NCBI GenBank assembly: GCA_032718475.1
Contig: JAUCBJ010006622.1
Location: 19,522-83,521 of the forward strand
Reading direction: 5' to 3'
DNA length: 64,000 nt
From: Nemertoderma westbladi
Taxonomy: Eukaryota > Animalia > Xenacoelomorpha
Shown here piece by piece: positions 10,499 through 33,427 of this stretch (its first letter is position 1; every line of letters begins with the position of its first letter). The translations under genes and the position numbers were made by a program. A model generated the notes under the pieces. That model was not told where the DNA came from. It made no database searches and saw nothing but the letters and a program-made list of their open reading frames with translations.

Positions 10499-10883
10499 AG
10501 TAGTAGGCCATCTGTCACCATCAATATTGATTCGTGTCGATGCCTTCAACCAATCGTTGCCTATCGCCTACGCGTAGCCTAACCTCACGATGCCTGCCTT
10601 ACTCGATAGCTGTTACCAACCGTGAGTATTGATTCGTGTTGTTGCATCAACCAACCATCGCATATTCATCTTCGCGTAACCTAACTTCACGATGCATGGC
10701 TAGCCCCCACTACACTATTATATTATATCGATTGCCAACTCACCACCGCTAGCCACGCACGGCTACTCCTCGACGGCTGTCGCCAAATCAATCCAACCAA
10801 CCAAGCAGCCTACCAGTCCAACGCTATGATACGTGAAATTCCGCCACGTTCCAGCTACACGTATACGAACATTTCCATAGTTA
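10499..10883 (+). repeat. Polinton left TIR
   Basis: Reverse complement of ~32949-33324 plus terminal 33419-33427, with few mismatches. Confidence 0.93.
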
Positions 10884-11294: not shown

Positions 11295-11454
11295 GTATAT
11301 ATAAGTGGTCAGAAATTCATACAAGATTGAAGATGATACTTAACTTATCTACATCGTTAAGTATCATCTTCTCTCTTGTGTGAGATACTTAATGATGTAG
11401 ATAAGTTAAGTATTATCTTTTGTCTTGTGTTAGTTTCTGACCACTTATATATAC
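11295..11454. repeat. 160-bp imperfect palindrome with TATATAAG at both outer ends
   Basis: gtatatataagtggtcagaaa...gatacttaacttatctacatc / gatgtagataagttaagtatt...tttctgaccacttatatatac. Confidence 0.8.
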
Positions 11455-11546: not shown

Positions 11547-12608
11547 ATGGCCTTAACGCAAAAAACCGGAGCAACAAATAGCTGGAAATTTACTTACAAT
11601 AAATATACTTGTACCGTCGTTTACAGCAAGTATTTTATTGTGGAATCTCAGGAGGACAACGAATAAATTTGTTTTTCCCATCAAGATACCCGCTATTTGT
11701 TAGACATTCTAGAAACAACCAACAACCAACATCAATCCAGACCAGCAATTATACCAGGTAGGATATATCCCACTCTTCGTTTTGCGCGGGGAAATTTGAA
11801 TATTTCCATCAACCCTACATCGGGTGATGTTTACGTTCAGAAACAAGGCAAATGTAAAGTTCTCAACAAAGCTTTTACTGAAGTTCTAATTCAATACAGA
11901 GGGAAATTATTGCAATTTCTCTCTCCACCGCTAGAGATTATTAGCGATAAATTCTACATTGAATTATCAAATCCAGAGTTTATTGGATTTGTAACAGCTT
12001 TTAAAGGAACCAACTATGTTGGCTTATGGAAAATCAGCCTCAGATACACTGATAGTGTTGGTTTTAACTATTATACGGGTTTCAATTTGTCAAAACAGGA
12101 ACTAACCGTTTTGTTGCGAGAGTGGGACAACCAAGTCGATGAAACAGACAAGCATCTTTTTGATAAAAATATCATTCAATTATCAGACCGTCTCAAAATG
12201 ATTAAAACCAATAATAAAAAAATTATTATCACCAACACCGATAATTCTACTGAAGTAGGTTCCGGCGGAAATTCTATCGAGTTGCATTACTTGAATGATA
12301 AAGCCCATATTAGTTTTCTCAAAGAATCGATGGATGGTGTTTCTCTTACTGAAGCCCATGTTGACGGTTTTGTCCTTTTGGATAAACCTAAAGCGTTCGT
12401 AGAGATCCCATCACCTAATCCAGATGTTGAAGAGAGTTGCTCTCAACCGCAACAGGTCTTTCCTGAAATATTACCTCGGAAGCCAAGATCATCGAGTAAA
12501 TTTACCAACGCATCATCTGCAAAGAAACAGAAAGTTGTCAGTAACCCAGTTCTAGTAGAGCCTGTTACTAATTCTCCATGGAAACCAGTTTATTATCCTA
12601 ACATGTAA
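11547..12608 (+). pseudogene. Polinton ORF with PC4-like ssDNA-binding domain(s); one in-frame stop at 11664
   Basis: ATG 11547 is in frame with the 11697-12608 ORF; FVTAFKGTNYVGLWKI...TGFNLSKQELTVL resembles the PC4 core; C-terminal basic, low-complexity tail. Confidence 0.55.
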
Positions 12609-14562
12609 GCCTAATCATAAGTTAAACTCTTTGCGGTTTCCAATAGTCATAAGCGATTGGCGATTGGTTTAAAATTATTTCCCTCGCTAGCATATAAATG
12701 TTTAGATGTAGTCAATATCATATCATTTCATTTTATTTTAATCTTTGGAGATATTTTATTATTATTATTATTATTTATCTAAACAAACTTCAACATGGAT
12801 AAAATAACAATATGTTGTTCATTCTGTCATATGAATGTAACTAGACATAATTATTTACGCCACCTATGGTCACATTTTGAAAGTTATTCTTGTTTAAAGT
12901 GTCATGTCGTGACTTCATGCAGCGAAATTTGTAAACGACATGAAACGACTACTGGTTGTAAAGAAATGGAGTTCCGCACCTATCAATTGACTTGTTCTAC
13001 CTGTAATAAAGAGTATACATATGACAATTATTTACGACACGATTGTCACTTGAAATGTTACTACACAAGAAAGCGTAAATCTCCGCAACATAAAAATATA
13101 TTATCTAGAAAAAACTTAAGGGTGGCTCTTGGTACATGCGCAACAATTTTTACGCGGGAACAAGAAGCTCACGATAATCGTCTTGAAATTTATGTCCACG
13201 ACCTCCCAACTTCTAGAGATTATCCCGATGTAGAAACAGCAGTGACGCAATTTCGAGGTAATATTCTTCAGTTAATATTAGATAGATTGAAAGAAATGAA
13301 TGTTCTTAGACTGTGGTTAGGTCTAAATGTATTAATGTACAGGTCACATTTTTCAGAAGGTGAGCAATTGGAAACCTTTTATTTTAATTCTTCCGGTGGT
13401 GCTATTAATACTGTAGATTCGCCGCAAAGTTTTGACACATGGTTTGAGTATGTGCTGGGGAATATATTACAAAAAATAGCCATCTTTAACACACGTGGTT
13501 CTGGGTGGCGTATTAAATCTTTATTAAGGGTTGAAATTAAATTAGCTGAATCTAAGTGTAGGTCGTTACTATATAAGGGGCATGGGTATATGGAATTACC
13601 TAAAGCTCTATCAGGTAAACAGTGTGTTATAAATGTACAATCGGCTGATAATGACTGTTTTAAATGGGCAATTATATCTGCAAAATTTAGTAGCAAAGTG
13701 AAAAACAACAAACAGCGTACTTCATCGTACAAAAATTATATGACTCATTTCATTTTTGACAACGGGAACAAAGATTATCCAACAGAGTGGCAGTTAGCAA
13801 TTAAACTTTTTGAAAAACAAAATTCAAAATATATAATTAATTTACTATGTTGGAATAACGACAACAAACACACCCCGGTATCTATATTAAGACAACCTCC
13901 GTTTAGTAAAATTACACGTGATAAACAGTTATTAAATATATTACTTGTAGTAAAAAATAACAATGTACCTAAACTGAATCATTATGTTTGCATAACTAAC
14001 TTGAATCGATTGCTGAATACGAGAGCACTTCATATCAGGAATAGGAAATATTGCGAAAGGTGTTTGGCTCATTTTTTTCAAGCGGAAGTTCTTCATCGAC
14101 ACCGTCTCGCCTGCTACCAAGGAAGAAGTCAGCGCGAGAAACTACCTAATAAAAAAAGAACACACATTAGTTTTACAAATTTAGATAGAACCTTATCCCC
14201 ATTGTTTGTCACCTACTTTGATATAGAATGTATCTTACAACCGTCAGTTAATAATCAAATTATACAGGAGCATATACCGTGTGCTGTGAGTTATTTAATT
14301 GTTCCCAATACTGAATTAATTGATGCTCCAAAATGTCATTTGAAAACATTCGTAAAGTCAAATAATAATAATTGTATTCAAGATTTCTTAGATTCATTAT
14401 ATACTGATTTAACTGAATTATGTTGTTGGTCAGAAATATACACACATAAAACTATGTCATTTACTATTGATTTTGTAAATTTTGAACAAGCAAAATTTTG
14501 TTTTTATTGTAATGTTACTTTAAATAATAATGTTGGGAAAAACAGACACCATTCACATATTA

Positions 14563-14939
14563 GGGGCCGTCCAAGTATGACGTCTGCACTTTTCTCCAAA
14601 ATGTTGACCCCCTCCCTCCCCTAAATCAGATGTCATCAGATAGGCGTTGACACCCCCCCTCCCCTAAATCAGATTAAAAAAAAATGTTCGCGTGCTAATC
14701 ACTGAAACATGGTGACTGGTAACTGAAACAGAAGGTTGTGCTACGGGCCTTCTGGGGCTTCGAACAATTAAAATAGGCAAGCTAATTACTCTTCTGCTAT
14801 ATATCTTCTAGCACCTATAAATGAACATGCTGACGTCAGATTTTGGCTGACCCCCTCCCCTCCCCTCATCAGCACGTCATCAGATTTTCCCAACCCCCCT
14901 CCCCACCTGAAAGTGCTGACGTCATACTTGGACGGCCCC
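14563..14939. mobile_element. PIF/Harbinger-type MITE inside pPolB
   Basis: TIR ggggccgtccaagtatgacgtc / gacgtcatacttggacggcccc; 3-bp TSD TTA (14560-62, 14940-42); removal restores HHSHITGKYIAAACNSCN in frame. Confidence 0.92.
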
Positions 14940-16083
14940 TTACAGGTAAATATATTGCGGCAGCCTGTAATAGTTGTAACCGAAGTTTATCATTGAAACG
15001 ATACCTGTATGTACTTTGCGGGCACAATTCCAACAATTACGATATACATTGTATATTACAAAGCGGATTTAGAGATAAGAAATACACAGATTGGGATATA
15101 AAGGTTATACCGAGAAATACAGAACGATATATTTCACTGAGTGCCTTTATCCCAATTAAAAACACTTCTAAGAAAATTGAGTTACGTTTCTTAGACACAT
15201 ATCAATTTTTAAGCTTTTCTTTAAGTAATTTAGTTGAGTGTTCAACAAAGGATGTAGCCAGTCATGATATAAGCTCAATTTTACCTATTACTCTACAAGA
15301 AATGAAATATTTTTATCCAAACTTGAATAACTCAACGATTAAACGGAAAGGAGTATTTCCATACGAGTACTTGACAGATATAAATAAATTTAATGATACT
15401 GGTTTGCCGTCTATAAATAATTTTTTTAGTAACTTAAGTCAAAAAACATGCACAATTGAAGATTATAGGTTTGCGGGAATATCATGGGTAGAATTCGACT
15501 GTGTGAATCTCAAAAGATTATCTTTTAGCCTATTTAAAACTCGATGTTTGTTTGCTTGCCGATATATTTGAGAATTTTAGGAATGTTTGTAAACAAAATT
15601 ACGATTTAGAAGCGGTTTTTTACTGTCGTATCGCGTCATTTACCTATGATTGCGCGCTAAAATATAATAAATGTAAAATAGAATTAATAAAGGATTATCA
15701 GACATATAGAGATTTTGAAAAATCAATTAGGGGTGGTGTTTCATTTTGTCGAAAACATTATATAGAATCAAATATACCAGGTACAAGTACATATGATTCT
15801 ACTAAGGAAGAATGCCATATTTTTAATATTGATTTCAACTCTTTATATTCTGGGAATTTAAGTAAAAAACTGAAGATTCAAAGAAGTAAGTATTAAACAA
15901 CAAAAAGTTTACCACGAGCTAGAGGTAACGAGTTTTATTGCTCACCGTGTTTAAGTAGACCCGGTCGTGACACTGCTGTACTGCTGTACTGACGGACTGA
16001 GGCTGACAGATAGCAGACACCTTGGCGCCAATATTAGGATTCTTGGCTGCGGTTTTGGTTTTTTTGGTTTTTGGGTTTTCGAA

Positions 16084-19000
16084 ATGGGGAGGTGTTGTGG
16101 GTGCAATAACTTGATTGGCAAATGCAAGAAATGCGTTTGCGCTCACGCCAAGCGGGCCTGCGAAAAGTGTGGTCCGGGGACAACAGGGCGGTGCGAAAAC
16201 CCCTTCGGAACCGGTCAATCCTGTTCTCAGCCGACAGCGTCAGCGTTGTCAACAGTTGACTGTCAGGTGGCGCCTGCACGCATATCTTCCTCGCAACCGT
16301 TGGATCTGAATGTTACCTCTCCAGATGAAACCCTAACGGATCTAGACAATACTCTCGGTCCAAACGGGTCGATCAACCCGACATCACGGCGCCTGATGCT
16401 GGGGTGACCGAGGTCGTGGGATCCACAGAGGAGTTGAATGGCGCCGAACCGTCTACAGCGCCGCCAACAAGTGCAGCCTCGTCTACAGCGCCCCCGACCG
16501 GCGCTGCCTCGGATACAGCGCCCCTGACAGGCGCCGCCTCGTCTACCGCGCCCCTGACAGGCGCCGCCTCGGCTACAGTGCCCCCGACAGGCGCCGCCAC
16601 GTCTACAGCGCCACCGGCGGGCGCCACCTCGGCTACAGCGCCCCCGACAGGCGCCGCCTCGTCTACTGCGCCCCCGACAGGCGCCGCCTCGGATACAGCG
16701 CCCCCAACAGCCGCCGCCTCGTCTACAGTGCCCGCGACAGGCGCCTCCTCGTCTACAGCGCCCCGAACTGGCGCCGCCTCGATTACAGCGACCCCGACAG
16801 TTGCCTCCTCGTCCACAGTGTCCACGACAGGCGCCGCCTTTCCTAGCCCACTATCTAAGTCCTGGCCCCCATGTAATATTGCATCACAGAATTATGGGCT
16901 CCACGCGGACCCAGACGAACTCATGTTAAGAGCATTTGGCACCACACTTGTGGGCAAAGGGACCCCACCTGATGGGCTAATGGATCAATGGCGACGGATA
17001 ACCCAACTAAAAGGGTCTAAATATCGACTGCCCGGAGGCGCTATAGGGCGGGATGTAGTCTCGCTCTTGGACGCAGAGGCCAAGGCCTTTGTTTCCGGTC
17101 TGAACCATAATGCGACCAACGTTCGCTCCGAGAGACTACTACTAGCCGACTCCCTCATCCTACACCGCGATCCGAAGGTAACCAAGGCCGCAGACATACG
17201 ACGGCTAATAAGCCGGAGGTTGGGGATGTGGCGCTCCAGCCAGGTAGAGATGTTGGTCGTTGAGGCTGAACGCTGCTCACTGCGAATTGGCTCCAACAGG
17301 CGATCAACCACGAAGTCGAACCAGCAGGAAAAAGAACAGACTATTCGAATTTTCTCTAGGCTCATGATGGAAGGGAAGGTAAGGAGTGCTGTTCGCTGGG
17401 TCACGGGGCGTGAGACCGGTAGTGTTCTAGATCCGGAATCGGAAATCGAAGTAAACCAACAGCGGGTGAGAGTCCTTGATGTTCTCAGCGAGAAGCATCC
17501 AGCAGCAGCTGCACCCAAAGCCGAGGCCTTATTAGTGTGTGATGATGAGTTGCCACTTCGGGTTGATGTCGAGATCACAGCTGCGCACATAGAATCGACA
17601 GCGCGGCGACTGAAAGGGAGTGGTGGGCCAGCCGGCAGCGACTCAACACGCTGGCGGGACTACCTTATCCGGTATGGGGCACATAGCCAGCGTTTACGCG
17701 AATCTATTGCCTCTATTGCGTGTTCACTTGCCAACAGTGTAGTGCCATGGGAATCAGTTCGGTCGCTGATGGCTAGCAGACTTATTGCCCTCGATAAGTG
17801 CCCCGGGGTTAGGCCCATAGGCATAGGGGAGTGCCTCCGCCGAATCTTGGGTAGATCAATGGCAGAAGCAACTGGAGATGATATCACCACTACGTGTGGC
17901 GCAGAGCAGTTATCTGCGGGCGTGATGGCAGGTGTGGAGGCCGGGGTACATTCAATGCGCTCAGTCTTCGACGAACATAGTGAGGATGGATGGGGCATTA
18001 TTATGGTTGATGCAGCTAATGCCTTCAACTCGCTGAACCGAGTCGCAGCCTTGTGGAACGTCAGGCAGCTGTGGCCTCGATGTTCAATGTTTCTCTTCAA
18101 CTGTTACCGTGGACACAGCATTCTGACAATAAAGGGAACCGATGCTGTGCTGTTCAGCGAAGAGGGTGTAACACAAGGAGATCCTTTAGCTATGCCTTTT
18201 TACGCTTCAGGCATCCTCCCTTTAATCCACGAGTTGCCATCACTTAAGGTTCGCCAAAGTTGGTTCGCTGACGACTCTTCTGGTGCCGGAAAGCTCCAGG
18301 ATATTCTCGAGTGGTACGAGCACTTACTTCGTCTGGGCCCCGCTCTCGGATATTACCCTCAGTCCGCCAAGAGCTTTCTCGTTGTGGCTCCAGAGTTTCT
18401 GGAGGAAGCCCAAAGTGTATTCGCCGAGCACAATATTAACATCGTTACAGGACACCGATTTCTGGGCGGGTTTATTGGTAGCGAGTCGGAGTGTGTGAAG
18501 TATGTCGGCGCCAAAATCGCATCCTGGGTAGCCTCAGTTGACAAGATGGCCGAGGTGGTGGAGGCCCAACCCCACGCTGCTTTCTCAGCCGTAGTTTGCT
18601 CACTCCAACGGGAGTGGGCATACCTCCAACGCGTTGTCCCAGACTGCAGCAGTCAGTTCGATGTGCTAGAGGAAGCGATCAGCGATAGGTTCCTGCCGGC
18701 AGTCTTCGATGGGCGAATTTCGCAACCAGAACTCAAGTTGTTTGCCCTGTCTCCGCGAATGGGTGGTCTGGGGTTGCGGAACCCGGTTAACGAGGCCGAT
18801 ACCAACTTTGCTGTATCAGAACTTGGGACACAGTCGCTGGTGAACGCGATCGCCGGGAAGGAGCCATTCTCCTTAGCCACCCACCTGAAGTGCATGGAGG
18901 GAGCGCGCATGACATCTCGGAAAGAGAGGCAGGGTATGGAGAAAGCCCAGCAGGAGGAAGCGTTGGAAGGAATGGCGGAGCACCAGCGTGTCGCTGTCCA

Positions 19001-19760
19001 ACGGGCGGCGGAGTTCAGGACCGGTGGCTGGCTATCCTCTCTTCCGGTAGCCGAACACCAGTTTGACCTCTCACCCCGGGAGTTTAGGGACGCTGTGGCT
19101 GTCCGGTATGGTAGACCCCTCGTAGGTGTCCCTTGCAGATGCGACGGTTGTGGCGCTGGGTTTGATCTCAACCACGGGTTGAATTGTAAGAAGGGTGGTC
19201 TAGTGATTCAGCGTCACAACGAGCTCCGCGACGCAGTCGGTGACCTCGCGGCCCTGGCATTTGGACCACGAAACGTTATGCTCGAGCCAGTGGTCCGCGA
19301 GCAGCACGAGGATGGCGGCGGGGCTGGTCTGCGATGCGATGTCGGCATTAGGGGAGCGTTCAGTACCCAGACACAGGCGTTGATTGACATACGTACAATT
19401 AACCTTGACGCCGTGTCTTATGCTGGGCGCTCCGTGAGGTCGGTATTGGAGTCGGCGGAAGAGGAGAAGAAACGCTTATATACAGCCGCAGTTTCCGCCC
19501 GCCGAGGTGATTTCTCCCCTTTCGTCGCCTCATGCGACGGCATACTGGCACCGCAGGCCAATAAGCTGTTGCGAATCATCGCAGACCGCCTACACACCAA
19601 CTGGGGGAAACCATACAGTTTGGTAATGGGGTGGGTGCGCGTACGCATATCGTTCGCGATAATCCGCGGCACTTCCCATTGCCTGCGAGGGTCGCGGGTG
19701 AGATGGCGAAGTGGTTTGGGGCTTGAGGACGGCGCCGGGATACCAGGGGGCTTTGCTTAG
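16084..19760 (+). CDS. CRE-like polyprotein: Cys-rich N-terminus, Thr/Ala/Pro linker, RT, CCHC + RLE (one frameshift near 16380)
   Basis: MGRCCGCN..CKKCVC..CEKC..RCEN from ATG 16084; ALDKCPGVRPIGIGE, DAANAFN, QGDPLAM, WFADDS; CDGC..H..NCKKGG..RHNELRD, RCDV, IDIRT, EEEKKRLY. Confidence 0.88.
16440..16840 (+). repeat. 30-bp coding tandem repeat (TAPPTGAASS)n, ~13 units
   Basis: tctacagcgcccccgacaggcgccgcctcg unit repeated in frame. Confidence 0.95.
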
Positions 19761-21141
19761 AGTGTTTGATCGATTATGCGGGGACTGGTATGGTATATTA
19801 CATAATTATTGCTCATTGTAACTGTGTAATGGAGTTGTTACCATCTGTACTACATGCAATATGCTATTGATCATTTAGTGCGTTTTTGCGAAAATATATA
19901 GTAGACCCGGTGGTAGATTTAGACATTGAGGGATCTACTGGATATTTTTTAATATGTGATTTAAATTATCCCAAGGCTATTCACGATCAAACATTACAAT
20001 TACCGTTAGCCCCCGAGCATTTAAGTATAAATGAATCAATGCTTTCACCTTATATGCGGGAACAATTTAATAACTTGTCAATACAAAGAGATACCTCCCG
20101 TAAATATAGAATGTCTATACCAAAACTCATGCTGACACAATTTGATAAAGAGTTTTATCATTTACATTTGAAACTGTTAAAATTTTATATAAAACATGGA
20201 TTAATTGTTACTAAACTACATAAATTATATTCTTTTCAACAAGAATTTGTATTTAAAAATTACATCGATTTTAATATTAATCAAAGGCGACTGGCAAAAA
20301 GTTACATTGAAACAGCTGTCGCGAAATTGCTCAATAATTCGCTGTTTGGCAAATCAATAGAAAAGATAAGAGATCGATGTAACTTTCGTATCGCAAATAG
20401 CAACGATAAATGCGATCAATTGGTAAATCGTATTAATCATGAACAATTTATAATATACAATAATACACTATCGGGACATTTATTAGTGAAAGACTCTGTA
20501 ACTCTCGATAAGCCTATATTTATTGGTAGCACTGTGTTGGACTTGGCTAAATTGGATATGTATGATCTGTATTACAATAAATTGCTACCTATTGAGAAAG
20601 AATTAAACTGCCGTATTGAAATTGCTGCATCAGACACTGACTCTTTGATAGGTTGTTACTATAATACATCGCAGAATAATTTTTTAAAAGCATTAATTAA
20701 AAATAATATTTTAGATACATCCAATTACCCTAAGGATCACCCGCTCTACAGCGATAAAAATAAATCCAGACTCTATTACTGTAAAGACGAACTAGCCTCA
20801 CGTGAAATTAAACAAGCAGTATTTTTAAGACCAAAATTATATTCAATTTTGGAATGGAATAATAAAAATATTCGTAGAGCAAAGGTATTACAAGAGCTGT
20901 TGTGGAAACGAATATTACACATGAAGAATATTTAAAAGCATATAACTCAAATGAAGAAATAAAAAAAACATACACAGATTTCAATCTAAATTACATCGTA
21001 TTTATACCTTAAAGCAAAATAAATTTGCACTCAGTAGCTTTGATGATAAACTTTATTGGCTTAATAAAAATCAATCGCTTCCTTGGGGGCACTATAAAAC
21101 AAACCTCAAAAAACCTATAAAAATATCAAATATACCAATTT

Positions 21142-21723
21142 ATGAAGAACCAAAAGACGACGGTGTTGATGATGAATTATCAAATAGTAAATAAAAATAT
21201 AAGTTGTAAGCAGATTATTTATGGACTTAATTTGAAAGAATTAAAAAAGCAATTGAATGGTAAAATTGTACTCAAACCTAATCAGTTTATATATAAGGTA
21301 TTTGGTGCAACCATATTAATGTTTACAAATGGACGAATAATAATTCTCGGTAGAAAATATAATTTTAATAAAGTGAAAAAACATATATTAGAAAAAACAA
21401 ACATTAATTTGATTTTTAAATCAATCAATTTGTGTACTTATATTTTTAGTATCGATACTGTAATTTATAGGTTACTTATAAATAATATCGGGTTTTATGT
21501 TATATTTGATAATGTTAAACTAGAAATTTCATACGACCCTGAAATATTCAATAACTGTAAAGTCAGAATAAATAATATTGTTGTTGTTTGCTGTTTCTAC
21601 ACTGGTAAATGTACATTAATGTGTTCCCCGTTTAAATTTCATATATATTATCCTATTTTCAACAAGCTGGTTAATAATTTATTATTGTTTGGTGTGGGGG
21701 TTTTTGATGTAAAATATAATTAG
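21142..21723 (+). CDS. TATA-box-binding protein (TBP)-like protein
   Basis: Two TBP-like repeats: YQIVN...LNLKEL...ATILMFTNGRIIILG and FKSIN...ISYDPEIF...VVCCFYTGKCTLM; likely start 21169/21172, overlapping the pPolB stop. Confidence 0.72.
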   Translation: MKNQKTTVLMMNYQIVNKNISCKQIIYGLNLKELKKQLNGKIVLKPNQFIYKVFGATILMFTNGRIIILGRKYNFNKVKKHILEKTNINLIFKSINLCTYIFSIDTVIYRLLINNIGFYVIFDNVKLEISYDPEIFNNCKVRINNIVVVCCFYTGKCTLMCSPFKFHIYYPIFNKLVNNLLLFGVGVFDVKYN

Positions 21724-22412
21724 TACCGGTACGAGTGAAATTTATTGTTGTTGTTGCTTTTTGGTGGTGGAGATTTTTACTGTAAAATATATATATTAAA
21801 TTGAAGGGAGAAGAAATTGATGAATATTTTTTTAAAATCAACAACTAGTTTGAGGGGGAAATTAACTTCAGTAGAGCGATTGTTTCTTGTAACACTCAAG
21901 TAGACATAGTATACTCAGCAGCCGCGGCTAGCTAGCTAGCTAACTTGGCATTGTTGCTCACGAGTGAGCCACAATAGCGCATCTGTTACTTATGAGTGTG
22001 CGTGTGTACAGCAGGCAACGCTAAGCTCGGTGAGAAAAGATTAGGGGTATGTGCTGGTATTCATAGTCAAAGACGATGCCATCCTATCTGTTACTAGTCT
22101 GTATATCGGTACATATCATTAAAACATCCGCTATGCATCTCCCTACATTCAGAATAGAACAATGAACAGAGCATATATCGCTAATCCTCATGGGAAAGGT
22201 TTATGTTGTGCATTTTGTTAACTATGTGAATTTTGTAATGTACACATCTGCGACCCTCTACAAAAATATATATAAACTCAATTTTTCTAACAGTGAACTA
22301 TAATTTTGTTTCCCTACTGTAAAATAAATACCGGTATAGACTAGGCTTAAGTTATCTTCATATTTGAAAAACTAACCTTAACAAACTTCAGTTCCGACAA
22401 CCAACATCTAAG

Positions 22413-22778
22413 ATGGCATTTTCTTTCATTGAAAATAGCAGCAGCGACTGTTTATTAAAATTTGATGTTGATGGAGACGACCTTTACTTTACATCCTTAA
22501 ATGTAACCGAATTACATTTAAAAAACAACAACGGAGAAATAACAATAATGGTTAAAAATAAAACCATGGGCAGCCAAGATCACTAAGCCAGATTGACGAC
22601 CAATAAAAACTTCAATTTAAACGTTAGAGTACAACCTGGAGCGACGCATCAGATATGCCTAGATAATTATAGTAGGGGAGAAAACTGGGATGAACATGAA
22701 CATGAAGATATAGCCGCGGCAGCTCAAGTTCCAATACCAAATCTACTACTTCCCACCGATCCGAGAATACGTCAGTAG
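22413..22778 (+). pseudogene. Small Polinton ORF of unknown function with one in-frame stop (22584-22586)
   Basis: ATG 22413 (MAFSFIENSS...) is in frame with the 22593-22778 ORF; TATATAAA ~140 bp upstream. Confidence 0.35.
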
Positions 22779-23907
22779 ACTCGTCTGCTCGTACAGCAAG
22801 TAGACTCATAGGTCTATATAATTAGTCACGTCTGTTACGTAGAGGGCTAATGTGTGTTACCGGTATCAGTAGGTTTTTGTATTGTATTGTATTGTATATT
22901 TTATATTTTATATCTAATTAAAAAAAAAGCGAATACATAAATAAACTAACTATGTTTTATATAGGCCCCCGTCAACATAGAGTGAATGTTAGTAACAGAG
23001 AATGTGGTGGATTTTATATAGGCTTAGTTAGGTATACTGCGGGCCACACCTATTGTATCCGCGTGGAGCCATTATATGACTGGTTGAATGATGGGGTTCC
23101 TGACTAAAAGTTAATGGTATAGCATACAACATAAAGTGAATGTTGAAAGTTAGTAACAGAGAGTGTGAGGGGATTTTATAGGTCCAATAGCGCTACCAGT
23201 ACCTAACTACACCTATTGTGTCTGTGAGGTAGTCAGCTTTCAGTTGAGGAGTAGTCATTAGGCCTATATGCCTAACCGAATGAAGGTGTACCTTACCTAT
23301 CCGTAAACCATATTGGGTCAACATGCGAAAAAGGGCCCCACATAAAGTTAACTATAGCTGTATAGGCTTACCTATGCAACAGTAGCACGCAGTAATGTAG
23401 ATTAGACCAATTAAAGTTGTAAACAGAAAATTGGAAACATTCAAGTGTAATAGCCTAATCCTTAAATCAAAGAAACCAGCATGCTCTTGCGCTATCCAAG
23501 TATACAGGTACAAGAGTGCTATGGTGCCGGTACCAGTAGGCCTATTGTTAGGTGGGCCTCCTCTAATGCTGTATTCACGAACCCGCATGTCGACTTAATT
23601 TAATTTTATTATTAGTAAGTACGGTACCGGTAACGCTAAAGCTCTGTGGTTGCTGTCGGGGGCCATTCTGCCGTTCTACAGTTTAGCGTTGTTGGCATAT
23701 GTAGTAAAATCAGCTAGCTACTGGTAGTTAAACTCTGATACAACCGCCGGCTACCGGTAGGTGCAGGGTGTTTGTGTGTGTGTGTAAACTTAAGCCCTAC
23801 ACCTTTAGTCAAACTGAGATATAAAAAATAGATTTTAATGTTTTTATTATTTTTATTGACATTAAAACAATTATATTATCCCATCACATTACATGCTTAG
23901 AGTAAAC

Positions 23908-24507
23908 CTACAGTACATCTTCCACCGCAGTTATTTCTTTCTGTTTATCATCATCATCAGTCGCAGTTAAACGCTTTCTCATGAAAAAATGTAGCACCTC
24001 ATACCCCCCAACGCGTTTTGCTGAGCAGTATCGCAGACAGTTATCCCTTATGTTTAAGTGGAACGTGCATTTACTTTCTATTGTAGTGAATCGGTCGTGA
24101 AATCGACAAGGCGTTAAATAATCGTGATATTGCTTATATATTCCCAATTTCTCCACCGAATTTGGCTCGAGAACATCGAGTTGGGAAACTAATATTGCCT
24201 GCTTCAGCAACCCAAATACATGAATATTTTTTTTATATTTTAAATGTCTCTTCATATATTTTTTAAAGTCATCTTGAGAAATGTCCCCGTAGTCCCAGGG
24301 CAAGTGAGAAGTCATATCCCGTAAATTGTTTACGTGAGCTGCATCTAAAGCTGATAACTTAATATTAGACGGGCCTTTAATTAAAAACGTCTTTACATTA
24401 GTTTTGGTGTAATTAGAATCGTATATAGCAAATTCTTTAAATACTACCGGATACTCCTTATTGTCTATCTTATAATATTGAAAATCAACAAAAATAATAT
24501 TATCCAT
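23908..24507 (-). CDS. DEDD/DnaQ-like exonuclease-fold protein
   Basis: IFVDFQ...VFKEFAI, LPWDYGDI, HVFGLLK, CxxH...C; pattern of a Polinton accessory family. Confidence 0.6.
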   Translation of the reverse strand: MDNIIFVDFQYYKIDNKEYPVVFKEFAIYDSNYTKTNVKTFLIKGPSNIKLSALDAAHVNNLRDMTSHLPWDYGDISQDDFKKYMKRHLKYKKNIHVFGLLKQAILVSQLDVLEPNSVEKLGIYKQYHDYLTPCRFHDRFTTIESKCTFHLNIRDNCLRYCSAKRVGGYEVLHFFMRKRLTATDDDDKQKEITAVEDVL

Positions 24508-24542
24508 TTTATCTGATAAACAAAAGCAAGCTAAATGATTAA

Positions 24543-24995
24543 TTACAACGCATGTTGGTTTATTTTATAATAATTAACAAGCCATTTATATAATATTATT
24601 TCATTTATTTCCACATTATTTGTAAACGCTCTCATTGGATAGATTGTGTGAATACGATTTATCAAATAATACAGACAGTACAGACCGCATGTGGTCCTCC
24701 TTGGGTCTTGAAATTGTTTGCGAGTAGTACGCCACCTTGCGGAATTTTTCTCAAGCCATTTTTCGATGCATCTGTTTGGATATTTTGGTCCAAACGAGTC
24801 AAATACTTCGGCCTCATTATCTCGTATATATATCGCGATCCAATGAATCCCAGGCAGATGCTCTTTATCAGTATTTACTATCAAGCCATAATCCTGCCGC
24901 TTATTATTATCTAATTTAGGTAATTTATTAGCTGGAAACGTGCCCAAATAGTGACCACCCACTGGAAACATATCAAGGTCCTCTGTAGATAACAT
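24543..24995 (-). CDS. Adenain-like cysteine maturation protease
   Basis: IVNTD...PGIHWIAI, FDSFG, QFQ...TCGLYC (His/Asp/Gln/Cys). Confidence 0.93.
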   Translation of the reverse strand: MLSTEDLDMFPVGGHYLGTFPANKLPKLDNNKRQDYGLIVNTDKEHLPGIHWIAIYIRDNEAEVFDSFGPKYPNRCIEKWLEKNSARWRTTRKQFQDPRRTTCGLYCLYYLINRIHTIYPMRAFTNNVEINEIILYKWLVNYYKINQHAL

Positions 24996-24997
24996 AC

Positions 24998-26257
24998 TTA
25001 ATCGATATGTATTTCTTTCCTGCTATTTAAACTTAATGATTGATCATAAATATTAAAAACGATTACATTTATGGTTTCAACCAACGGTTCGGCAAATCTT
25101 AATTTTAATTGGCCGTTAGTATATATCGACGGTTGCGGATCTCTAACGTAGCCGTCGGTGGTTAGGTCCCAGGATAGGATGGGACAATTACCTAAGTAGG
25201 TTTCATGGTCTATATTATTACCTCCATAACCGTTAATATATGTATTAATGTTCTTCATTAATTGAGTATACTCAAAAATATATGTTCCATCTGTAAAATT
25301 AGGTTCGTATATTACACCCCCTACTGGAAGACCGTCTACAATCAGTTCCGCGCGTCTAAGGTTAAAATGTTCAAATTTCAAGGGATTGCTAATTAATTCT
25401 CCCGAATAAGCGTTATTTGTTATGAAGCCAATAATAACTAATTTGGGTTTTTTACCATCAAATATGTTTGTTTGGGTGTAATTTGTGGTTTGAGCGGGAA
25501 TAGTAAATGTTGTCACCTCCTTTTTTTGAAATTGATATTCAATATCGTAACTCTCTAAACCTTTTAGGTGACTGCTTTCTATTACTGGATTAACCTCCAT
25601 TCTAGGGATTAGAATCTTTATTTCATCTAATTCTAACCGAAGATTTGTCATAGCGTTTGCGTTTTGAGTGATTTTAAAAATAAACGAATTTGATACTTTT
25701 CTAAAATGCATTCTTAAATCATACCCGGGTTGTATTATTTTAGTTTCAGTATCAAAATCAATTGTCAATCCACTTACAAATTGCATTTGTTTACTAAAGG
25801 CCTCGTCAATAGGATGCGCGCCGGGATCAATTTCATTTCCGTGTTCAGATAAAGGTTGATGAAAGCCACCCGCACCCAGTAGCCCATTTTTATCCTCGTA
25901 AGTTGTAAATAATAAATTGGATAAGTACGACTTGTAGAAATAATGGTTATTGCTATTTTCAACCTGCTTCTCATTAAGGTCTATTTTAATATCACTCCAC
26001 ATAGTTTCAGCGGGGTAATTCAGCATATAAATATGGGAGTTTTCAAGTCGTCTATCCCAGCGTACAGTACATTTTGTAATTAATAACGCGTCTTGCAGTT
26101 TCGTATAGAATTCATTGGATCTCGGTACAAGGAACGTGACCTCCCTAGATTCACTTCTGAGATTAGATATGGGGTAAATTGTTTCATAATGCTTTGCTTT
26201 AAATTCAGTCTGTATTGGCTGTGTAGAAAATAAATCTAATTCCTTAATAATTGACAT
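24998..26257 (-). CDS. Major capsid protein (double jelly-roll, PY)
   Basis: ELDLF..PIQT N-terminus, PKLVIIGF..N.AYSG..NPLKFEHFNL, LKLRFAEPL; position next to the protease. Confidence 0.9.
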   Translation of the reverse strand: MSIIKELDLFSTQPIQTEFKAKHYETIYPISNLRSESREVTFLVPRSNEFYTKLQDALLITKCTVRWDRRLENSHIYMLNYPAETMWSDIKIDLNEKQVENSNNHYFYKSYLSNLLFTTYEDKNGLLGAGGFHQPLSEHGNEIDPGAHPIDEAFSKQMQFVSGLTIDFDTETKIIQPGYDLRMHFRKVSNSFIFKITQNANAMTNLRLELDEIKILIPRMEVNPVIESSHLKGLESYDIEYQFQKKEVTTFTIPAQTTNYTQTNIFDGKKPKLVIIGFITNNAYSGELISNPLKFEHFNLRRAELIVDGLPVGGVIYEPNFTDGTYIFEYTQLMKNINTYINGYGGNNIDHETYLGNCPILSWDLTTDGYVRDPQPSIYTNGQLKLRFAEPLVETINVIVFNIYDQSLSLNSRKEIHID

Positions 26258-26259
26258 TA

Positions 26260-26823
26260 TTAAAAAATACTTTTTTCGCAGTGTTTCAGTTTGCCCTTTA
26301 TTTTTTTATTTTTATTACTACGTCGATGATGTATGTTCATAGACATTGGTCTAGCGGGTCGCTTTAAATCTCTATAAACTTTTTCTACAACTGACCTTGT
26401 TGACGGTTTCATTTTATTTAATGCTTTATTAATAACCGTATTAGCCTGCTGATGTAAGACCCGCTTACCTTTTGGTATTACGTGTTGTCTCATAAATTTT
26501 GTGGTAAATGGTAAAGCTTTCTGTAAAACTTTTTTAGCTAATGGCTTACCAAATTTTTTCAATGTCGATAAAGCGTCTGTAAATATACCTTCTCCGTGTT
26601 GATTTGCCTGTATACCTCTACGATAACGCTGAAAACGACGTTGTTTTAAGTTTGGACCAAATGTGCCAATTTGTTGGCCGTAAGGGTCAATATATGAACC
26701 ACCTCGAAAAACAGGAACTTGCGTCGAACCTCTGGTACTTCTACCACCTTTAAAAACAGCAAGATTAGAGTCTGAACCACCATATTGAGGTTTACTGTAT
26801 CTTTGAAATAAATCAGAATCCAT
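26260..26823 (-). CDS. Basic core protein (PM-like) with QxGG/QxGxG cleavage-type motifs
   Basis: QYGG, VFKGG, VFRGG, QHGEGIF followed by an amphipathic helix; Arg/Lys-rich; ends in SIF. Confidence 0.75.
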   Translation of the reverse strand: MDSDLFQRYSKPQYGGSDSNLAVFKGGRSTRGSTQVPVFRGGSYIDPYGQQIGTFGPNLKQRRFQRYRRGIQANQHGEGIFTDALSTLKKFGKPLAKKVLQKALPFTTKFMRQHVIPKGKRVLHQQANTVINKALNKMKPSTRSVVEKVYRDLKRPARPMSMNIHHRRSNKNKKIKGKLKHCEKSIF

Positions 26824-26824
26824 T

Positions 26825-27679
26825 TTAATTTATACGTTTAAAGTATAATGTAATAGATGTTGTCCCGTATTCAAAATTCAAATCTTTTCCTTCTTTGTCT
26901 GTTATTTCAATATGAATGTATGTTATCTTATATGATTTTTTTACAGGGATATAATGAATTGTATCCTTGACAAATTCTTTATTTATTACGCTACCATATT
27001 TCACATCATCAGGTATCGCAACACGACGAAGTAAAGCTAAACCAAAATCGTTAATATATTGATTTTCAATTATATTAGTATTCACGTACATGTTCGACTT
27101 AGGTTCTGGAATAGAATTGGGTGGTTGAGGGCATAAAAATACCATCTGGTAAGCTTTTTCTCCATTTCCGATAACCTTTATTAAATAACCCTTTATATTA
27201 TTTTTCGTCTTCAAAATAATTTTAAAATTTGGATTTAAATTCGCGCCGAGATTATTTTCAGTAATTCCAAAATAATAGGCTAATTGTTGACCTATAAATA
27301 ACTCTCGCACAGTTTTCCCTAAAATAAATTGCAACCTATTTTGCTGAGTATTTTCAACTATTTGTAATTTATCTTTCAACGCCCCCGTGTTAAAATAATC
27401 TATAATGTCATTGATACTGTAGAACAAACCGGATGGAAGTGTATCCTCAAAATTTTTTTTTCCTTTTTTTAATAAAATAACATTCTCTACATTGTTATAC
27501 ATGGACGGCAACGTAGCTAAGTAAAATATACTTTTTATACCTACCACCCAGTTTTCGTTTGGGTTTATAGGTAAGGCGCCATGGAAATTTATCTGATAAT
27601 TACTAGCGCTATTGCGGGGAAAATCAATTGGACAGGAATTACTTGGTAGTCTTACGTAGAATTCATCCATCACAGCCAC
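26825..27679 (-). CDS. Minor capsid protein (penton, PX) copy 1
   Basis: FYVRLPSNS...FP.N..SNY, WVVGI, MYVNTNII, LLRRV, HYIPV, IEITD..G..LNF..G...ITLYFKR. Confidence 0.85.
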   Translation of the reverse strand: MAVMDEFYVRLPSNSCPIDFPRNSASNYQINFHGALPINPNENWVVGIKSIFYLATLPSMYNNVENVILLKKGKKNFEDTLPSGLFYSINDIIDYFNTGALKDKLQIVENTQQNRLQFILGKTVRELFIGQQLAYYFGITENNLGANLNPNFKIILKTKNNIKGYLIKVIGNGEKAYQMVFLCPQPPNSIPEPKSNMYVNTNIIENQYINDFGLALLRRVAIPDDVKYGSVINKEFVKDTIHYIPVKKSYKITYIHIEITDKEGKDLNFEYGTTSITLYFKRIN

Positions 27680-28535
27680 CCCGTATTAACTTAAGTGTTA
27701 TAACAGTGCGAACTCCACTGAAGTTAATTAATTCGCCTTGTCCGTCACGTAAAGTAATTAAGATTGTTTTTAGTTTTTTATTCAACAACGGGTAATAGCA
27801 AATGCTCTCGTATTCGTGATTAATATATTTTCGATTTAATTGCGTTAAAGGGCAGGTTCTTAAGAGCGGAGCTAAAGCGTCGCCAACAAATGAGCTCTTA
27901 ATAATATCTGTATATATAAAGATAGTGTCTTTATTACGTGTTATATTCGTGGGAGCTTGAAAATCTAAAATGCCAATTTCCGAAATTTTTGGCCTGCTAT
28001 AATTTAAAATTAATATTGGCTGTTCTATATTGCTTAATTCATCTACTGTAGTGGTACTGTATATATCCCAATTCGGAATATCCGGATGATTCCGATCCAA
28101 TAACGGTTTTAAGCCTAGAATTTGTATTAAATCACCACGTAGACTTAATTGTATTTTTTTCAACTTTTTAGGAAATTTAAATTTAATTCTAGAATTATTT
28201 GTATTAAAAATGAATTCGAAATCTCTATATTTCGCTTCAGAATTAAACAGTTTATTTATATCATCAATAATGACTTGAATAGAGTTATGCATACCAGGAA
28301 ATAAACTATATAATTTGGCATCTTTTGCATCTACCCCGATTGACAGCGAGATTTGAGTTTGCAGCGTAATATTACTGTATGTTGCTTGATATTGAAGCTC
28401 GGCAAGCCCAATTTTAGCGTTTGGACCAATATATAATTCTTCGGCTAAATCAACAGTAAACTCGCTAGGATTATTATTGGGGTAAGTGTTTAATGAGCTA
28501 TCTGAAAGTAGAGTGATATATGTATCTGTGGCCAT
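27663..28535 (-). CDS. Minor capsid protein (penton, PX) copy 2
   Basis: YITLLSDSS..YPNN.PSEF.V.L, IGLAEL, IFIYTDII...VGD..APLLR, YYPL, ITLRD..GELINF, ITLKL. Confidence 0.88.
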   Translation of the reverse strand: MATDTYITLLSDSSLNTYPNNNPSEFTVDLAEELYIGPNAKIGLAELQYQATYSNITLQTQISLSIGVDAKDAKLYSLFPGMHNSIQVIIDDINKLFNSEAKYRDFEFIFNTNNSRIKFKFPKKLKKIQLSLRGDLIQILGLKPLLDRNHPDIPNWDIYSTTTVDELSNIEQPILILNYSRPKISEIGILDFQAPTNITRNKDTIFIYTDIIKSSFVGDALAPLLRTCPLTQLNRKYINHEYESICYYPLLNKKLKTILITLRDGQGELINFSGVRTVITLKLIRGGCDG

Positions 28536-28806: not shown

Positions 28807-29895
28807 TTATTGAATATGCTGTACCCACGACTGTTTCTTGGATCCGATGAATCGGACTAAATATTCTTTCTTCCCATTGCGTACACGTTCTTTAAGTTTG
28901 CCAATATTTTTATCAATTGCTAGATAAATATTACTATTCGGGTGGACCTTTTGGAGTTCGTGAGAATAAAATGAGCCCTTTATTATAGCTCCAGCACTGT
29001 CCTTAATATCGAACATTACAGCGGGTACTCTATCCAACCTGACACGATGAATAATAAATAATTCACGTGTCCATTGTTCTCGATAGCCTTTAGCAAAAGC
29101 AGTACGAGCGATAGATAATCGTACTGTATCTCCAACTTTAAATTTTATTTTCTTATGATTAATCTGTCTATATTTCCCATATAATCTATTCATTAATTCA
29201 GTTTCATTAAATTTATTAACTTCAATAGGCGTCATTTTTATTGTCCTATGATATGACCTATTATAAGCTGAGATAAGCTTAGGTAAAATTTTAATCCAAA
29301 CATTATTTCCTCGTTGTGTAAAAATTTTGAACATCTTTGTTTTTAATGTTCTATTGAATCTCTCGACAATAGCCGCCTTATTCACAGAGTACATTACGTA
29401 ATACTGTATACCTAACGTATCTAAATATTTCCTTACAGATTTATTTAGAAACTCAGAACCTTGATCCGTGGCGATTCTGTTTGGTTTTCCTTTCTGGAAT
29501 ATTTTTTGCAATATACTAATAATTTCAACACCCTTTTTTGTTTTCATACCACAGCCAAAAGCAAGCCTGCTAAAGGCATCAATACATGTTAATATATAGT
29601 TATAATTATTATTTTGTGATTTATATTGCTGCATATCCACCAGATCTATCATATATATATCTTTTATGCCTCCCGTAAATATTTTAGATGTTGGATAATG
29701 GTGTCTACGTAGAGCGTTAAGGGTGTATGTCTTTTGCCCGCTCATCCATTTCTGGGCTTGTGCTGGTTTGATGTTTGCAGCTTTTGCTAATTTTGCAACA
29801 CTTGCAAATCCCGCAGGGGATGAAGGATCTAAATAAATTCTTAACAGTTTTTTGTCTAAGCTTCGGCTTAAAATCGGTTTCATCTTGCGAGGCAT
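28807..29895 (-). CDS. Retroviral-like (RVE) integrase with C-terminal chromodomain-like region
   Basis: IDLVDM, CIDAFSR, TDQGSEF, VERFNRTLK (D,D,E), KFKVGDTVR, KEYLVRF...SWV. Confidence 0.95.
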   Translation of the reverse strand: MPRKMKPILSRSLDKKLLRIYLDPSSPAGFASVAKLAKAANIKPAQAQKWMSGQKTYTLNALRRHHYPTSKIFTGGIKDIYMIDLVDMQQYKSQNNNYNYILTCIDAFSRLAFGCGMKTKKGVEIISILQKIFQKGKPNRIATDQGSEFLNKSVRKYLDTLGIQYYVMYSVNKAAIVERFNRTLKTKMFKIFTQRGNNVWIKILPKLISAYNRSYHRTIKMTPIEVNKFNETELMNRLYGKYRQINHKKIKFKVGDTVRLSIARTAFAKGYREQWTRELFIIHRVRLDRVPAVMFDIKDSAGAIIKGSFYSHELQKVHPNSNIYLAIDKNIGKLKERVRNGKKEYLVRFIGSKKQSWVQHIQ

Positions 29896-30117
29896 CTTTT
29901 CGACAACCGCAAGTAATATGTATATTCAAATCTCTTATAAAGGGCATCACCGTAAGAACAACTGAAATTTTTTAATTATTTTCTTTGAAGTTGATGTTTT
30001 AAAGGGTTTTCTTTTTGTAGTATTTACTCTAGGTATATCTTGAGGTTTTAAATCAGTAGCTAACGGTTTACTTGATACTAAATATAATTTTCTAAATGTT
30101 ACTCCTGTTTTAACCAT
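29880..30117 (-). pseudogene. Short, probably frameshifted PZ-like ORF
   Basis: MVKTGVTFRKLYLVS... starts just after the PW stop, at the position PZ usually occupies; much shorter than typical PZ. Confidence 0.3.
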
Positions 30118-30119
30118 TA

Positions 30120-30503
30120 TTACCGTCCACGGTTAATTTTTTTCGCAATAGCTGCTCCAGCGGCGGCAGCTCCGGCACTCGCGGCGAGTTTCGCACCAAT
30201 GCCGAGTAAGGGTATTAGAAACGGTAGTATACCTCCAGATTGATTGCTTAACTTTTTTCTGTAACTTGATATATTTTTTGTTTTACGGTTGAGTGATTTC
30301 AATACCTTCTTATAGCGGCGAATATTTCTAAATGAATGAGGGGTTAATTGTACATTACCTTTTAGAACATTTAATGCAGTATTTACAATGAGCCGTATTA
30401 ATTCGTTACTTGCGGTATGGTTAATAAAATAAGTTCTTTGTTGAGGGGTAGCGCTGCGTAGAAATTCCAGTTCGTTACGATATTTCTGCACAAGTCTATT
30501 CAT
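30120..30503 (-). CDS. PW-like core/membrane-active protein
   Basis: ALNVLKGNVQLT, basic helix, QSGG followed by hydrophobic ILPFLIPLLGIG. Confidence 0.8.
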   Translation of the reverse strand: MNRLVQKYRNELEFLRSATPQQRTYFINHTASNELIRLIVNTALNVLKGNVQLTPHSFRNIRRYKKVLKSLNRKTKNISSYRKKLSNQSGGILPFLIPLLGIGAKLAASAGAAAAGAAIAKKINRGR

Positions 30504-30540: not shown

Positions 30541-31224
30541 TTATTTATCATTATTATTATTATTATTATTTTCGCTACGTTTATTGTCAGTGTAATTTTT
30601 AATGTAACAATTATGATTACGAAATATATCAGATCTAAATCTTAAATGTTCGGGTGTTTCCTGTCGTAAATCAATTAAGAAATGTGAAAATGGTTGAATT
30701 GTCGCATCTTGATAGGAATCAACTAAAAATTTGGTCTGCCCTGGTAACATCTGCTTCGCGAAATTTAAAACCGATAAACTGTCTCTCGGATTTTTCATTA
30801 ATACTAAAGTATGGCTATTAATTGATCTTGTGCGGTTATGCTTCCCACCGTAAAACATGTTTTGCGTTATAAAACAAATAAATATATTGGAATGATGAGC
30901 TACCTTAGTAAACAATACAGTTAATGCTGTACTGGACTCAGTTTCTGTTAACAAATCATCTATAATTAATAAATCTCGACTATTCACTAAACTATCTATA
31001 TTTTCGGGCAAACCTTTGTAAAGGTGAGTAATACCGGGAATAGTCAGGGGATTGCTCCCGTAACAATACAATACTCGCAAGGAGGCTTCGTTGAAACAAC
31101 CATTCTTGTGTTTAATTAAATTGCTTACAAAGGTTGACTTTCCAGAACCAGATGGCCCAGAAATTATCATACTCGTTCCCATTTGAAAGTTTAAATTATA
31201 TGGACCTGAATTAAAGTCAGCCAT
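30541..31224 (-). CDS. Genome-packaging ATPase (FtsK/A32-like)
   Basis: Walker A GPSGSGKS, Walker B LLIIDDL, ITQN, RSIN, KNPRD, LIDL. Confidence 0.95.
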   Translation of the reverse strand: MADFNSGPYNLNFQMGTSMIISGPSGSGKSTFVSNLIKHKNGCFNEASLRVLYCYGSNPLTIPGITHLYKGLPENIDSLVNSRDLLIIDDLLTETESSTALTVLFTKVAHHSNIFICFITQNMFYGGKHNRTRSINSHTLVLMKNPRDSLSVLNFAKQMLPGQTKFLVDSYQDATIQPFSHFLIDLRQETPEHLRFRSDIFRNHNCYIKNYTDNKRSENNNNNNNDK

Positions 31225-31440: not shown

Positions 31441-31893
31441 TCAAGCATGGTGAGCATCTTTATACGCGAAATAATGATAGGTAACATCGGCGGTTTGGAA
31501 ATCACTTCCTGAAAATTTCGCGCTAATAATTTTTTTATGTTCGCTGCTAAAAAAATAAGGAATATAGTAGCAACAGCATCGTACTACATTTCTATAAAAA
31601 ATATTCTCCAATATTGTAAATAAATCTCCCGGATCATTACTTTCCGCAGAAATATAAGTTATATTGCGAAGCTCTTTCCAATAATAGGGTTGATAACTTG
31701 CCAACTTTATATTAAACTTAGATATGGGTGCGCGACAAATAGGACAAATTTTAGAACAATAATTATTCATTTCGGAATATTGTACAATACATTGTACGCA
31801 AGTTGCATGTTTATTTTCACATTTATAATAATCTCGATGTTGTTGCAATAACTTAGAATAGCAAACTGGACATTTTTCATTTAAAATATCCAT
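31441..31893 (-). CDS. RING-finger protein (putative E3 ligase)
   Basis: CPVC...CENKHATCVQC...CPICR (C3HC4). Confidence 0.8.
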   Translation of the reverse strand: MDILNEKCPVCYSKLLQQHRDYYKCENKHATCVQCIVQYSEMNNYCSKICPICRAPISKFNIKLASYQPYYWKELRNITYISAESNDPGDLFTILENIFYRNVVRCCCYYIPYFFSSEHKKIISAKFSGSDFQTADVTYHYFAYKDAHHA

Positions 31894-32058: not shown

Positions 32059-32529
32059 TCAAGAATCAATGATATTATCAACATATTCAACATTATCCGT
32101 TGATTCTTCAGTTTCGATAAAGGATTCTTTTGAAATCATTACAATAAAGAAAGACATAATTTCGTAGGGGCTATGCCGATTTAGCCGTATTTCAAACTTT
32201 TCACCAGCTTCGTTGTATTGTGTAATAACAATAAACCCCTCTATCATGGATAATAGTAAAATGTTGCTTAATTTTCCCTCATGCTCAACTTTCAGGTTGT
32301 AATCTAAGAGATGAACACTATTATCAGAAGCATCAATATCAATTGAGCTTAAAACTTTCCTGGCTTTTTCAGAAAACTCAATTTTATATTTTTTTCATAA
32401 AACTCAATTTTATATTTATCATCTCCCTGACGGTAAATTGTATAATCAATAACAATATAGGCTTGACCATCTTCTGCAAAAAATGAATGCCTTACTATTG
32501 GCATAACCATATCGGAATCAGAAGACATT
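32059..32529 (-). pseudogene. Decayed Polinton ORF of unknown function
   Basis: ATG at 32529 after a TATA-like element; frameshift and a ~25-bp tandem duplication at ~32365-32418; C-terminal part is the 62-aa ORF. Confidence 0.35.
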
Positions 32530-32948: not shown

Positions 32949-33427
32949 TAACTATGGAAATATTCGTATACGTGTAGCTGGAACATGGCGGAATTTCACG
33001 TATCATAGCGTTGGACTGGTAGGCTGCTTGGTTGGTTGGATTGATTTGGCGACAGCCGTCGAGGAGTAGCCGTGCGTGGCTAGCGGTGGTGAGTTGGCAA
33101 TCGATATAATATAATAGCGTAGTGGGGGCAAGCCATGCATCGTGAAGTTAGGTTACGCGAAGATGAATATGCGATGGTTGGTTGATGCAACAACACGAAT
33201 CAATACTCACGGTTGGTAACAGCTATCGAGTAAGGCAGGCATCGTGAGGTTAGGCTACGCATAGGCGATAGGCAACGATTGGTTGAAGGCATCGACACGA
33301 ATCAATATTGATGGTGACAGATGGTCATTAAACATCGCGATTTAGCACGTTTTTAATAGCCCTCCGAGATGCAGCCCGTAGCCCAGGCTAGGGAGGAGTA
33401 CGTGGGGGGCACTCTTCTCCTACTACT
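32949..33427 (-). repeat. Polinton right TIR (with 94 extra bp near the tip)
   Basis: Reverse complement of the left TIR; 33325-33418 has no counterpart on the left. Confidence 0.9.

Follow-up and report, generated by a model that had tools for sequence, protein, structure and literature searches.

A gene for a TBP-like protein inside a Polinton raises the question of how such elements time the expression of their genes, and whether they do so without a helper virus: what would a Polinton do with a TBP? The gene lies in a stretch of 64,000 nucleotides from Nemertoderma westbladi (assembly GCA_032718475.1, contig JAUCBJ010006622.1, positions 19,522 to 83,521 of the forward strand), here called the window. 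Viral TBPs are well known, as the available portions of two papers set out (PMC7221094; PMC12529657). Closer to Polintons, a TBP is labelled in MELD viruses with an adintovirus-like PolB in the Fig. 5 legend of Starrett et al. 2021 (PMC8502044; preprint 10.1101/697771). These viruses resemble the present element in carrying a TBP-like gene in a mid-size relative of Polintons, a likeness known from the legend entry alone, and differ in that the TBP comes without residue, selection or promoter analysis in the accessible part of the paper; the accessible supplement of PMC8502044 holds no match for TBP. Neither TBP nor TATA is mentioned in the available main text of two recent Polinton surveys (10.64898/2026.06.19.733378; PMC11131425), and 'Polinton', 'Maverick' and 'adintovirus' are absent from the four searchable supplement files of PMC7221094. 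Across the open full-text literature (subscription papers, figures and Repbase fall outside this scope), we found no Polinton TBP study beyond that one legend.

The gene sits inside the element and not at a host locus. The element spans 22.8 kb including insertions and ~18 kb without them, both within 15–25 kb, and is bounded by 376-nt inverted repeats. The left repeat (10499..10883, +; paired arm 10508-10883) begins AGTAGT, and the right one (32949..33324, -) is 99% complementary to it over 376 nt and lacks about the last 9 bases. CATTAA stands near both element ends, though displaced by one base, and the right end is incomplete, which leaves the 6-bp target duplication inexact. On the plus strand are an ORF at 11547..12608, the protein-primed DNA polymerase B (pPolB) and the TBP-like gene. 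The first of these ORFs is broken by an in-frame stop. An Atlas search links it weakly with PCNA/Rad1 clamps (0.84); if it did encode a late factor of clamp type next to the TBP, the pair would be reminiscent of poxviruses. By eye the ORF at 11667-12605 has a PC4-like stretch, for which neither Pfam nor PHROGs nor a PDB sequence search gave support. Ahead of the first ORF, at 11295-11454, lies a long hairpin (71-nt arms, 89% complementary) with TATATATAAG at each end in opposite directions, possibly a bidirectional promoter or an origin-like structure.

The pPolB gene (12795..21194, +) was identified from polymerase and exonuclease motifs in its translation, a Pfam search of its pieces giving no match, and is split into five pieces by two insertions and by frame breaks. 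One insertion (14563..14939, ~0.4 kb) is MITE-like: it has inverted repeats at its termini and a duplicated TTA, as in PIF/Harbinger elements. The other, at 15900..19910 (+; ends approximate), is a GC-rich retroelement-like sequence of ~4 kb with a 1,143-aa frame, at least 12 tandem repeats of 30 nt at its start and an 11-12 nt GTAGACCCGGT near both ends; it had no Pfam match and by eye is presumably of CRE type.

The minus strand holds a block in the order ATPase, two small basic ORFs, integrase, two likely minor capsid ORFs, a basic ORF, major capsid protein, protease and a 199-aa ORF. The packaging ATPase (30541..31224) has a P-loop and a Pox_A32 match below cut-off (E 9e-4), and the 56-aa and 127-aa basic ORFs (29947..30503) are likely core proteins, with an Adeno_PX match also below cut-off (E 0.013). 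The integrase (28807..29895) is of retroviral type (PF00665, E 3.9e-11). Position and look suggest that the ORFs of 281, 290 and 187 aa (the last basic) at 26260..28535 encode putative minor capsid or core proteins. The major capsid protein (24998..26257) has 44 relatives, two of them named capsid protein, and is followed by an adenovirus-type cysteine protease (24543..24995; PF00770, E 1.3e-5) and by the 199-aa ORF (23908..24507), which has a nuclease-like acidic motif by eye, no family match and its own TATA box. A RING-finger-like ORF (31441..31893, -; zf-RING_2, E 0.01) and an ORF in two pieces (32059..32528, -) complete the strand. The terminal repeats and the gene set of pPolB (recognised by motifs), integrase, ATPase (below cut-off), protease and major capsid protein bear out the original prediction that the element is a Polinton, with the caveat that pPolB is broken in this copy. 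The lineage is isolated: its 44 capsid relatives are only 21-27% identical. Family searches detected no TFIIB among the element's ORFs, most of which match no family, so that a remote TFIIB could escape.

Between the converging gene blocks lies a mostly non-coding centre of 2.2 kb (21724-23907) with a diverged ~160-nt repeat (22973-23229) and polyadenylation-like signals on both strands. It includes a 57-aa ORF (22413..22586, +) in a part that differs from copy to copy. Over 22314-22916 contig depth falls far below the flanks in three DNA runs, and this segment, with the 57-aa ORF, is an accessory region of only some copies. Elsewhere in the window are a foldback-like element of ~4 kb with nested inverted repeats (53849-58051), two arrays of a 68-nt minisatellite (5202-5978 and 49109-49680) and further mobile-element ORFs encoding a reverse transcriptase (930-3455), a Bel/Pao-like gag-protease (38586-42050; flanked by long direct repeats at 34556-35445 and 45035-45925) and a DUF4371, hAT-like protein (60879-62360).

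The TBP-like ORF (21142..21723, +) is intact, as predicted, with 193 codons and further in-frame ATGs at 21169 and 21172, the former giving a protein of 184 aa. It overlaps the stop (21192-21194) of the last pPolB-frame piece (20955-21194). Pfam PF00352 matches it in two stretches at E 1.1e-5, with 25.6 bits against a curated cut-off of 22.9, and each half searched singly is a weak match (E 0.005 and 0.013), in keeping with the two TBP-like repeats, or lobes, originally proposed. NCBIfam TBP models reach E 6e-4 and 1.6e-3, far under their cut-offs, and TBP clusters make up 29 of 30 matches in an Atlas search, in which the recognition value was low (1709). A profile built from 120 cellular TBPs scores the ORF at 16.9 bits; all 2,000 shuffles score less (top 7.9), and the runner-up among 572 window ORFs reaches 3.0 bits. 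The protein is strongly basic (24 K/R against 8 D/E) and consists of the TBP core alone, without an N-terminal tail. The TBP match is real and beyond chance.

Relatives of the protein were not found. No sequence relative emerged from 119 candidates or from 1.84 billion representatives, and none from viral contigs or metagenomes; tblastn of phages and plasmids gave chance matches only, the PDB sequence search no match and a spaced TBP motif search 0 matches, while the best 120 of 1,651 matches of a TBP profile search were all ordinary TBPs. Searches for sister Polinton loci through a pPolB piece and through the ATPase found none, and the integrase led to one 1-kb contig; the capsid alignment is very divergent. 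No TBP tested, in a set made up of TBPs other than the host's own, shares more than 25% identity with the protein, which was not classed as a host paralogue. A tree, among the checks originally proposed, was built with 7 viral rows and with 17 of 49 and 15 of 71 cellular ones beside the query (40 in all); the query's branch measures 9.5 changes per column, too long for the tree to place its origin. Eukaryote and archaeal TBP profiles score it alike (12.8 and 15.4 bits). A separate viral contig carries, at 1326-3404, a nucleocytovirus-like capsid gene adjoining a TBP of eukaryote-like type, in which far fewer changes have accumulated than in the protein of the window.

Is the gene maintained, or is it debris? 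Four sequencing runs (at most three samples) were compared over 19500-25500, and four over the ORF. In the three DNA runs the depth of element DNA exceeds that of the inserted retroelement several hundredfold (summed contig depth, not copy number), and contigs of runs X3, X4 and X5 continue from the pPolB end into the TBP-like ORF; run X5, guessed to be RNA, also covers non-coding parts. Among 35 substitutions at a share of at least 4%, 17 are silent and 18 change an amino acid (each taken alone), and third codon positions hold 22. With an expected silent share of 19-26%, pN/pS is 0.25-0.37 (p 8e-5 to 3e-3), a range to be read with same-contig variants not independent, four sites peculiar to the window's copy and a count that is not a codon-model test. 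No stop or frameshift was seen at a share of at least 4% in the four runs, and the sole indel is an in-frame one of 3 nt, while the adjoining downstream non-coding stretch has several; some contigs lose similarity exactly at the stop codon of the ORF. Codons 83-130, between conserved motifs, hold 15 of the 18 amino-acid changes.

The case that the original prediction had set against itself, a captured host TBP/TRF copy decaying neutrally, would suit the lack of relatives found in other Polintons and the damaged state of the element. It fails on the low pN/pS, the absence of disabling changes, the intactness of the ORF while its neighbours are broken, the identity of at most 25% to any TBP tested and the presence of the ORF alongside pPolB in several runs; we regard it as largely refuted, with very little probability left to it. 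The data support a TBP-fold gene that is native to the Polinton family and kept by selection.

What such a protein could do is best approached through its residues, which we mapped in yeast numbering via a yeast-like TBP (P0067); the yeast residue numbers agree with Table 1 of PMC12529657. Equivalents of all four DNA-intercalating Phe are present (F49, F61, F136 and F152), where at least three had been expected, and a shortening of ~5 residues right after F49 makes the role of that residue less sure. The stirrup Y131-D-P-E134 maps to the acidic TFIIB stirrup of TBP, also as expected, with D132 and E134 as its acidic residues; yeast E186 is thereby replaced by Asp and stays acidic. In full, the yeast positions that are kept are N69, F99, L114, F116, F190, F207, G119, G125, G210, K211, R196, Y185, P187 and E188. 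No amino-acid change among copies hits a Phe or the stirrup. The changed positions are V122, T124, N159, V161, L189, P191, L205, V213 and T215. Among 15 DNA-contact positions that could be mapped, the residue is the same at 6 and differs at 9, and at T124, N159, V161, P191, L205 and V213 the element's residue was seen in none of ~120 cellular TBPs. At position 67 (yeast V122) most other copies have Thr, like the symmetric T158.

The base-reading set of Asn/Thr pairs and Pro191 is not kept: T124 becomes L69, T215 becomes M160, P191 becomes N137 and N159 is best aligned with T99, with N69 kept. The original claim that both Asn residues are retained is borne out for the first (N17 or N19) and unconfirmed for the second: in the best gap-free register yeast N159 falls on T99 with a score of +5.5 against -9.7 for the proposed N96 (one smaller alignment put D105 there). 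The equivalents of yeast G192 and G216 are also changed, and extra residues precede the second stirrup. Helix H2 is ~5 residues shorter, with the K138 and R141 equivalents changed and the helix still basic overall. In the available text of the respective papers, Pro191 gives preference to T as the first base of TATA (PMC12529657), second-repeat changes can shift TBP to TGTAAA (PMC10005294), and helix H2 is part of the surface for TFIIA, TAF1, Brf1 and Mot1 (PMC7221094). DNA bending and TFIIB contact thus look kept and base reading looks changed. The residue map argues for altered specificity and disfavours a plain TATAAA-binding TBP.

The kept stirrup also bears on a role outside transcription, in which the protein would bend DNA at the element's termini or in replication, integration or packaging. 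The overlap of the gene with the end of pPolB and the very basic protein would fit such a role, and TBP lobes do have other nucleic-acid roles according to the accessible part of PMC7221094, but an acidic TFIIB stirrup that is kept and unchanged among copies would be useless in it. We consider this role distinctly unlikely.

The original prediction also proposed a structural check. Single-sequence fold prediction is poor (pLDDT 33). With a 90-TBP alignment the model has both lobes in TBP order (pLDDT 74.6, pTM 0.62), a TBP likeness that is partly circular given the alignment used, with an unsure inter-lobe angle. The top Foldseek matches of this model are TBPs (E 8e-9), and it aligns with TBP at Z 12.4 over 168 residues (rmsd 6.4) while departing from it by ~6 Å rmsd and a TM of 0.42-0.49. 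The two lobes are predicted to form a TBP-type saddle.

In a viral fold library the nearest matches to the model include nucleocytovirus TBP-like proteins. These matches would agree with a virophage-like life cycle in which the protein partners the RNA polymerase and the TFIIB that a large DNA virus supplies as helper, as would the reported dependence of some Polinton-like viruses on large viruses. Matches to cellular TBP are as good, though, the element's non-structural genes carry host-type TATA boxes, and we know of no helper virus for the element; we judge such a partnership improbable.

The promoters of the element offer a further line of evidence. Two canonical TATAAAA boxes (21093..21123, +) lie within the 3' end of the pPolB frame, at distances of 76 and 53 nt from the ATG at 21169 downstream, and are the likely promoter of the TBP-like gene, upstream of which the TATA-matrix score of 12.4 is the top of 16 windows (antisense 6.7). 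Across 16 upstream regions, with a background rate of 21%, TATAWAW occurs at -160 to -40 before 7/7 non-structural ORFs, the TBP-like one included, and before 0/9 capsid, packaging and integrase ORFs (Fisher p 9e-5), in a grouping and window chosen post hoc, with three of the seven non-structural ORFs unverified and seven of the nine block ORFs so tightly packed that they may share one transcript. A published TATA matrix concurs (of four windows, three give p 5e-4 and one 0.017), and with the 199-aa gene moved into the block p ranges from 0.003 to 0.06, the latter in the narrower window. The antisense control also differs (p 0.007), TATATA runs being near-palindromic; the upstream regions of pPolB and of the TBP-like gene have a high TATA score on the sense strand only. 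A free motif search of the late block found no shared motif beyond chance. TATAAGA precedes three of nine block ORFs and none of the seven others (p 0.01-0.055), and TAAGA six of nine and one of seven (p 0.016-0.08); both are marginal, lose significance in the narrower window and are missing before the major capsid protein and ATPase genes.

We infer, as the original prediction did, that the protein redirects or antagonises host RNA polymerase II (Pol II), and the promoter pattern leans towards redirecting. An antagonist or decoy would occupy host or element TATA boxes or soak up TFIIB, shutting down host or early transcription and activating nothing. Kept Phe residues and an acidic stirrup beside a changed N-lobe would suit such a dominant negative, as would the failure to find a late motif. 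Yet the changes cluster at base-reading positions, which a competitor for TATA should keep, it is left unexplained why the late block has no canonical TATA boxes, and where TBP mimics have been characterised in viruses that depend on Pol II, they activate transcription, according to the available portion of PMC12529657. We hold an antagonist to be unlikely.

Our best reading, to which we assign a probability of about 0.5, is that the protein, produced early, acts through an altered box to direct Pol II and TFIIB of the host to the late block. The gene would be made early from its host-type TATA promoter; its product would bind an altered TATA-like sequence, bend the DNA with its four Phe and thereby recruit these host factors to the genes for capsid, packaging and integrase. 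Host TFIIB would be used, none having been found in the element, and the shortened helix H2 may allow partial escape from host regulators.

Comparison with known TBPs places this candidate factor. It shares with cellular TBP (PF00352; yeast 1YTB, human 1CDW) the order of its two lobes, the four Phe, the YxPExF stirrup, FxxG[KR] turns and basic charge, and differs in lacking the N-terminal tail, in its identity of at most 25%, in the changed base-reading positions and in being ~5 residues shorter both after F49 and where helix H2 begins. As described in the accessible text of PMC12529657, the beta/gammaherpesvirus vTBPs (KSHV ORF24, EBV BcRF1) are likewise TBP mimics with kept Phe and a changed base-reading surface, the degree of change at DNA contacts in KSHV ORF24 being similar (Table 1); they rely on host Pol II, with host-type promoters on early genes and none on late ones, a pattern like the element's. 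KSHV ORF24, however, is a 752-aa protein with Pol II-binding and extra DNA-binding domains and no acidic stirrup, whereas the element's protein is a bare core of 184-193 aa that keeps the stirrup; the herpes vTBP needs five partners, none evident in the element, and goes with a distinct late promoter motif, where our free search gave no shared late motif. The TBP-like proteins of nucleocytoviruses and white spot virus, in the available part of PMC7221094, are also divergent, stand-alone, two-lobed viral TBPs and the best viral fold matches, but these viruses mostly encode their own TFIIB, unlike the element, in which none was detected; the E186/E188 position is only ~40% conserved in viral TBPs, most of which go with a virus-encoded TFIIB, whereas its equivalents in the element's protein stay acidic. 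The element's protein belongs to the TBP fold family and is neither a canonical TBP nor a member of the herpes system. In its mode of action it may resemble a minimal late factor of the herpes type.

That an ~18-kb element with no RNA polymerase of its own keeps a TBP-like gene under selection speaks for active control of host Pol II; it supports a real viral life cycle for the element and offers a one-protein handle for testing it. A natural TBP of altered specificity that keeps its TFIIB surface would be useful for TBP structure-function work and for orthogonal transcription tools. We suggest tentatively, at somewhat less than even odds, that this isolated lineage uses a one-protein early-to-late switch in which a bare TBP core, with no detectable relative, has acquired a new base specificity and docks host TFIIB. 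If true, this would be the smallest possible viral reprogramming of host RNA polymerase II.
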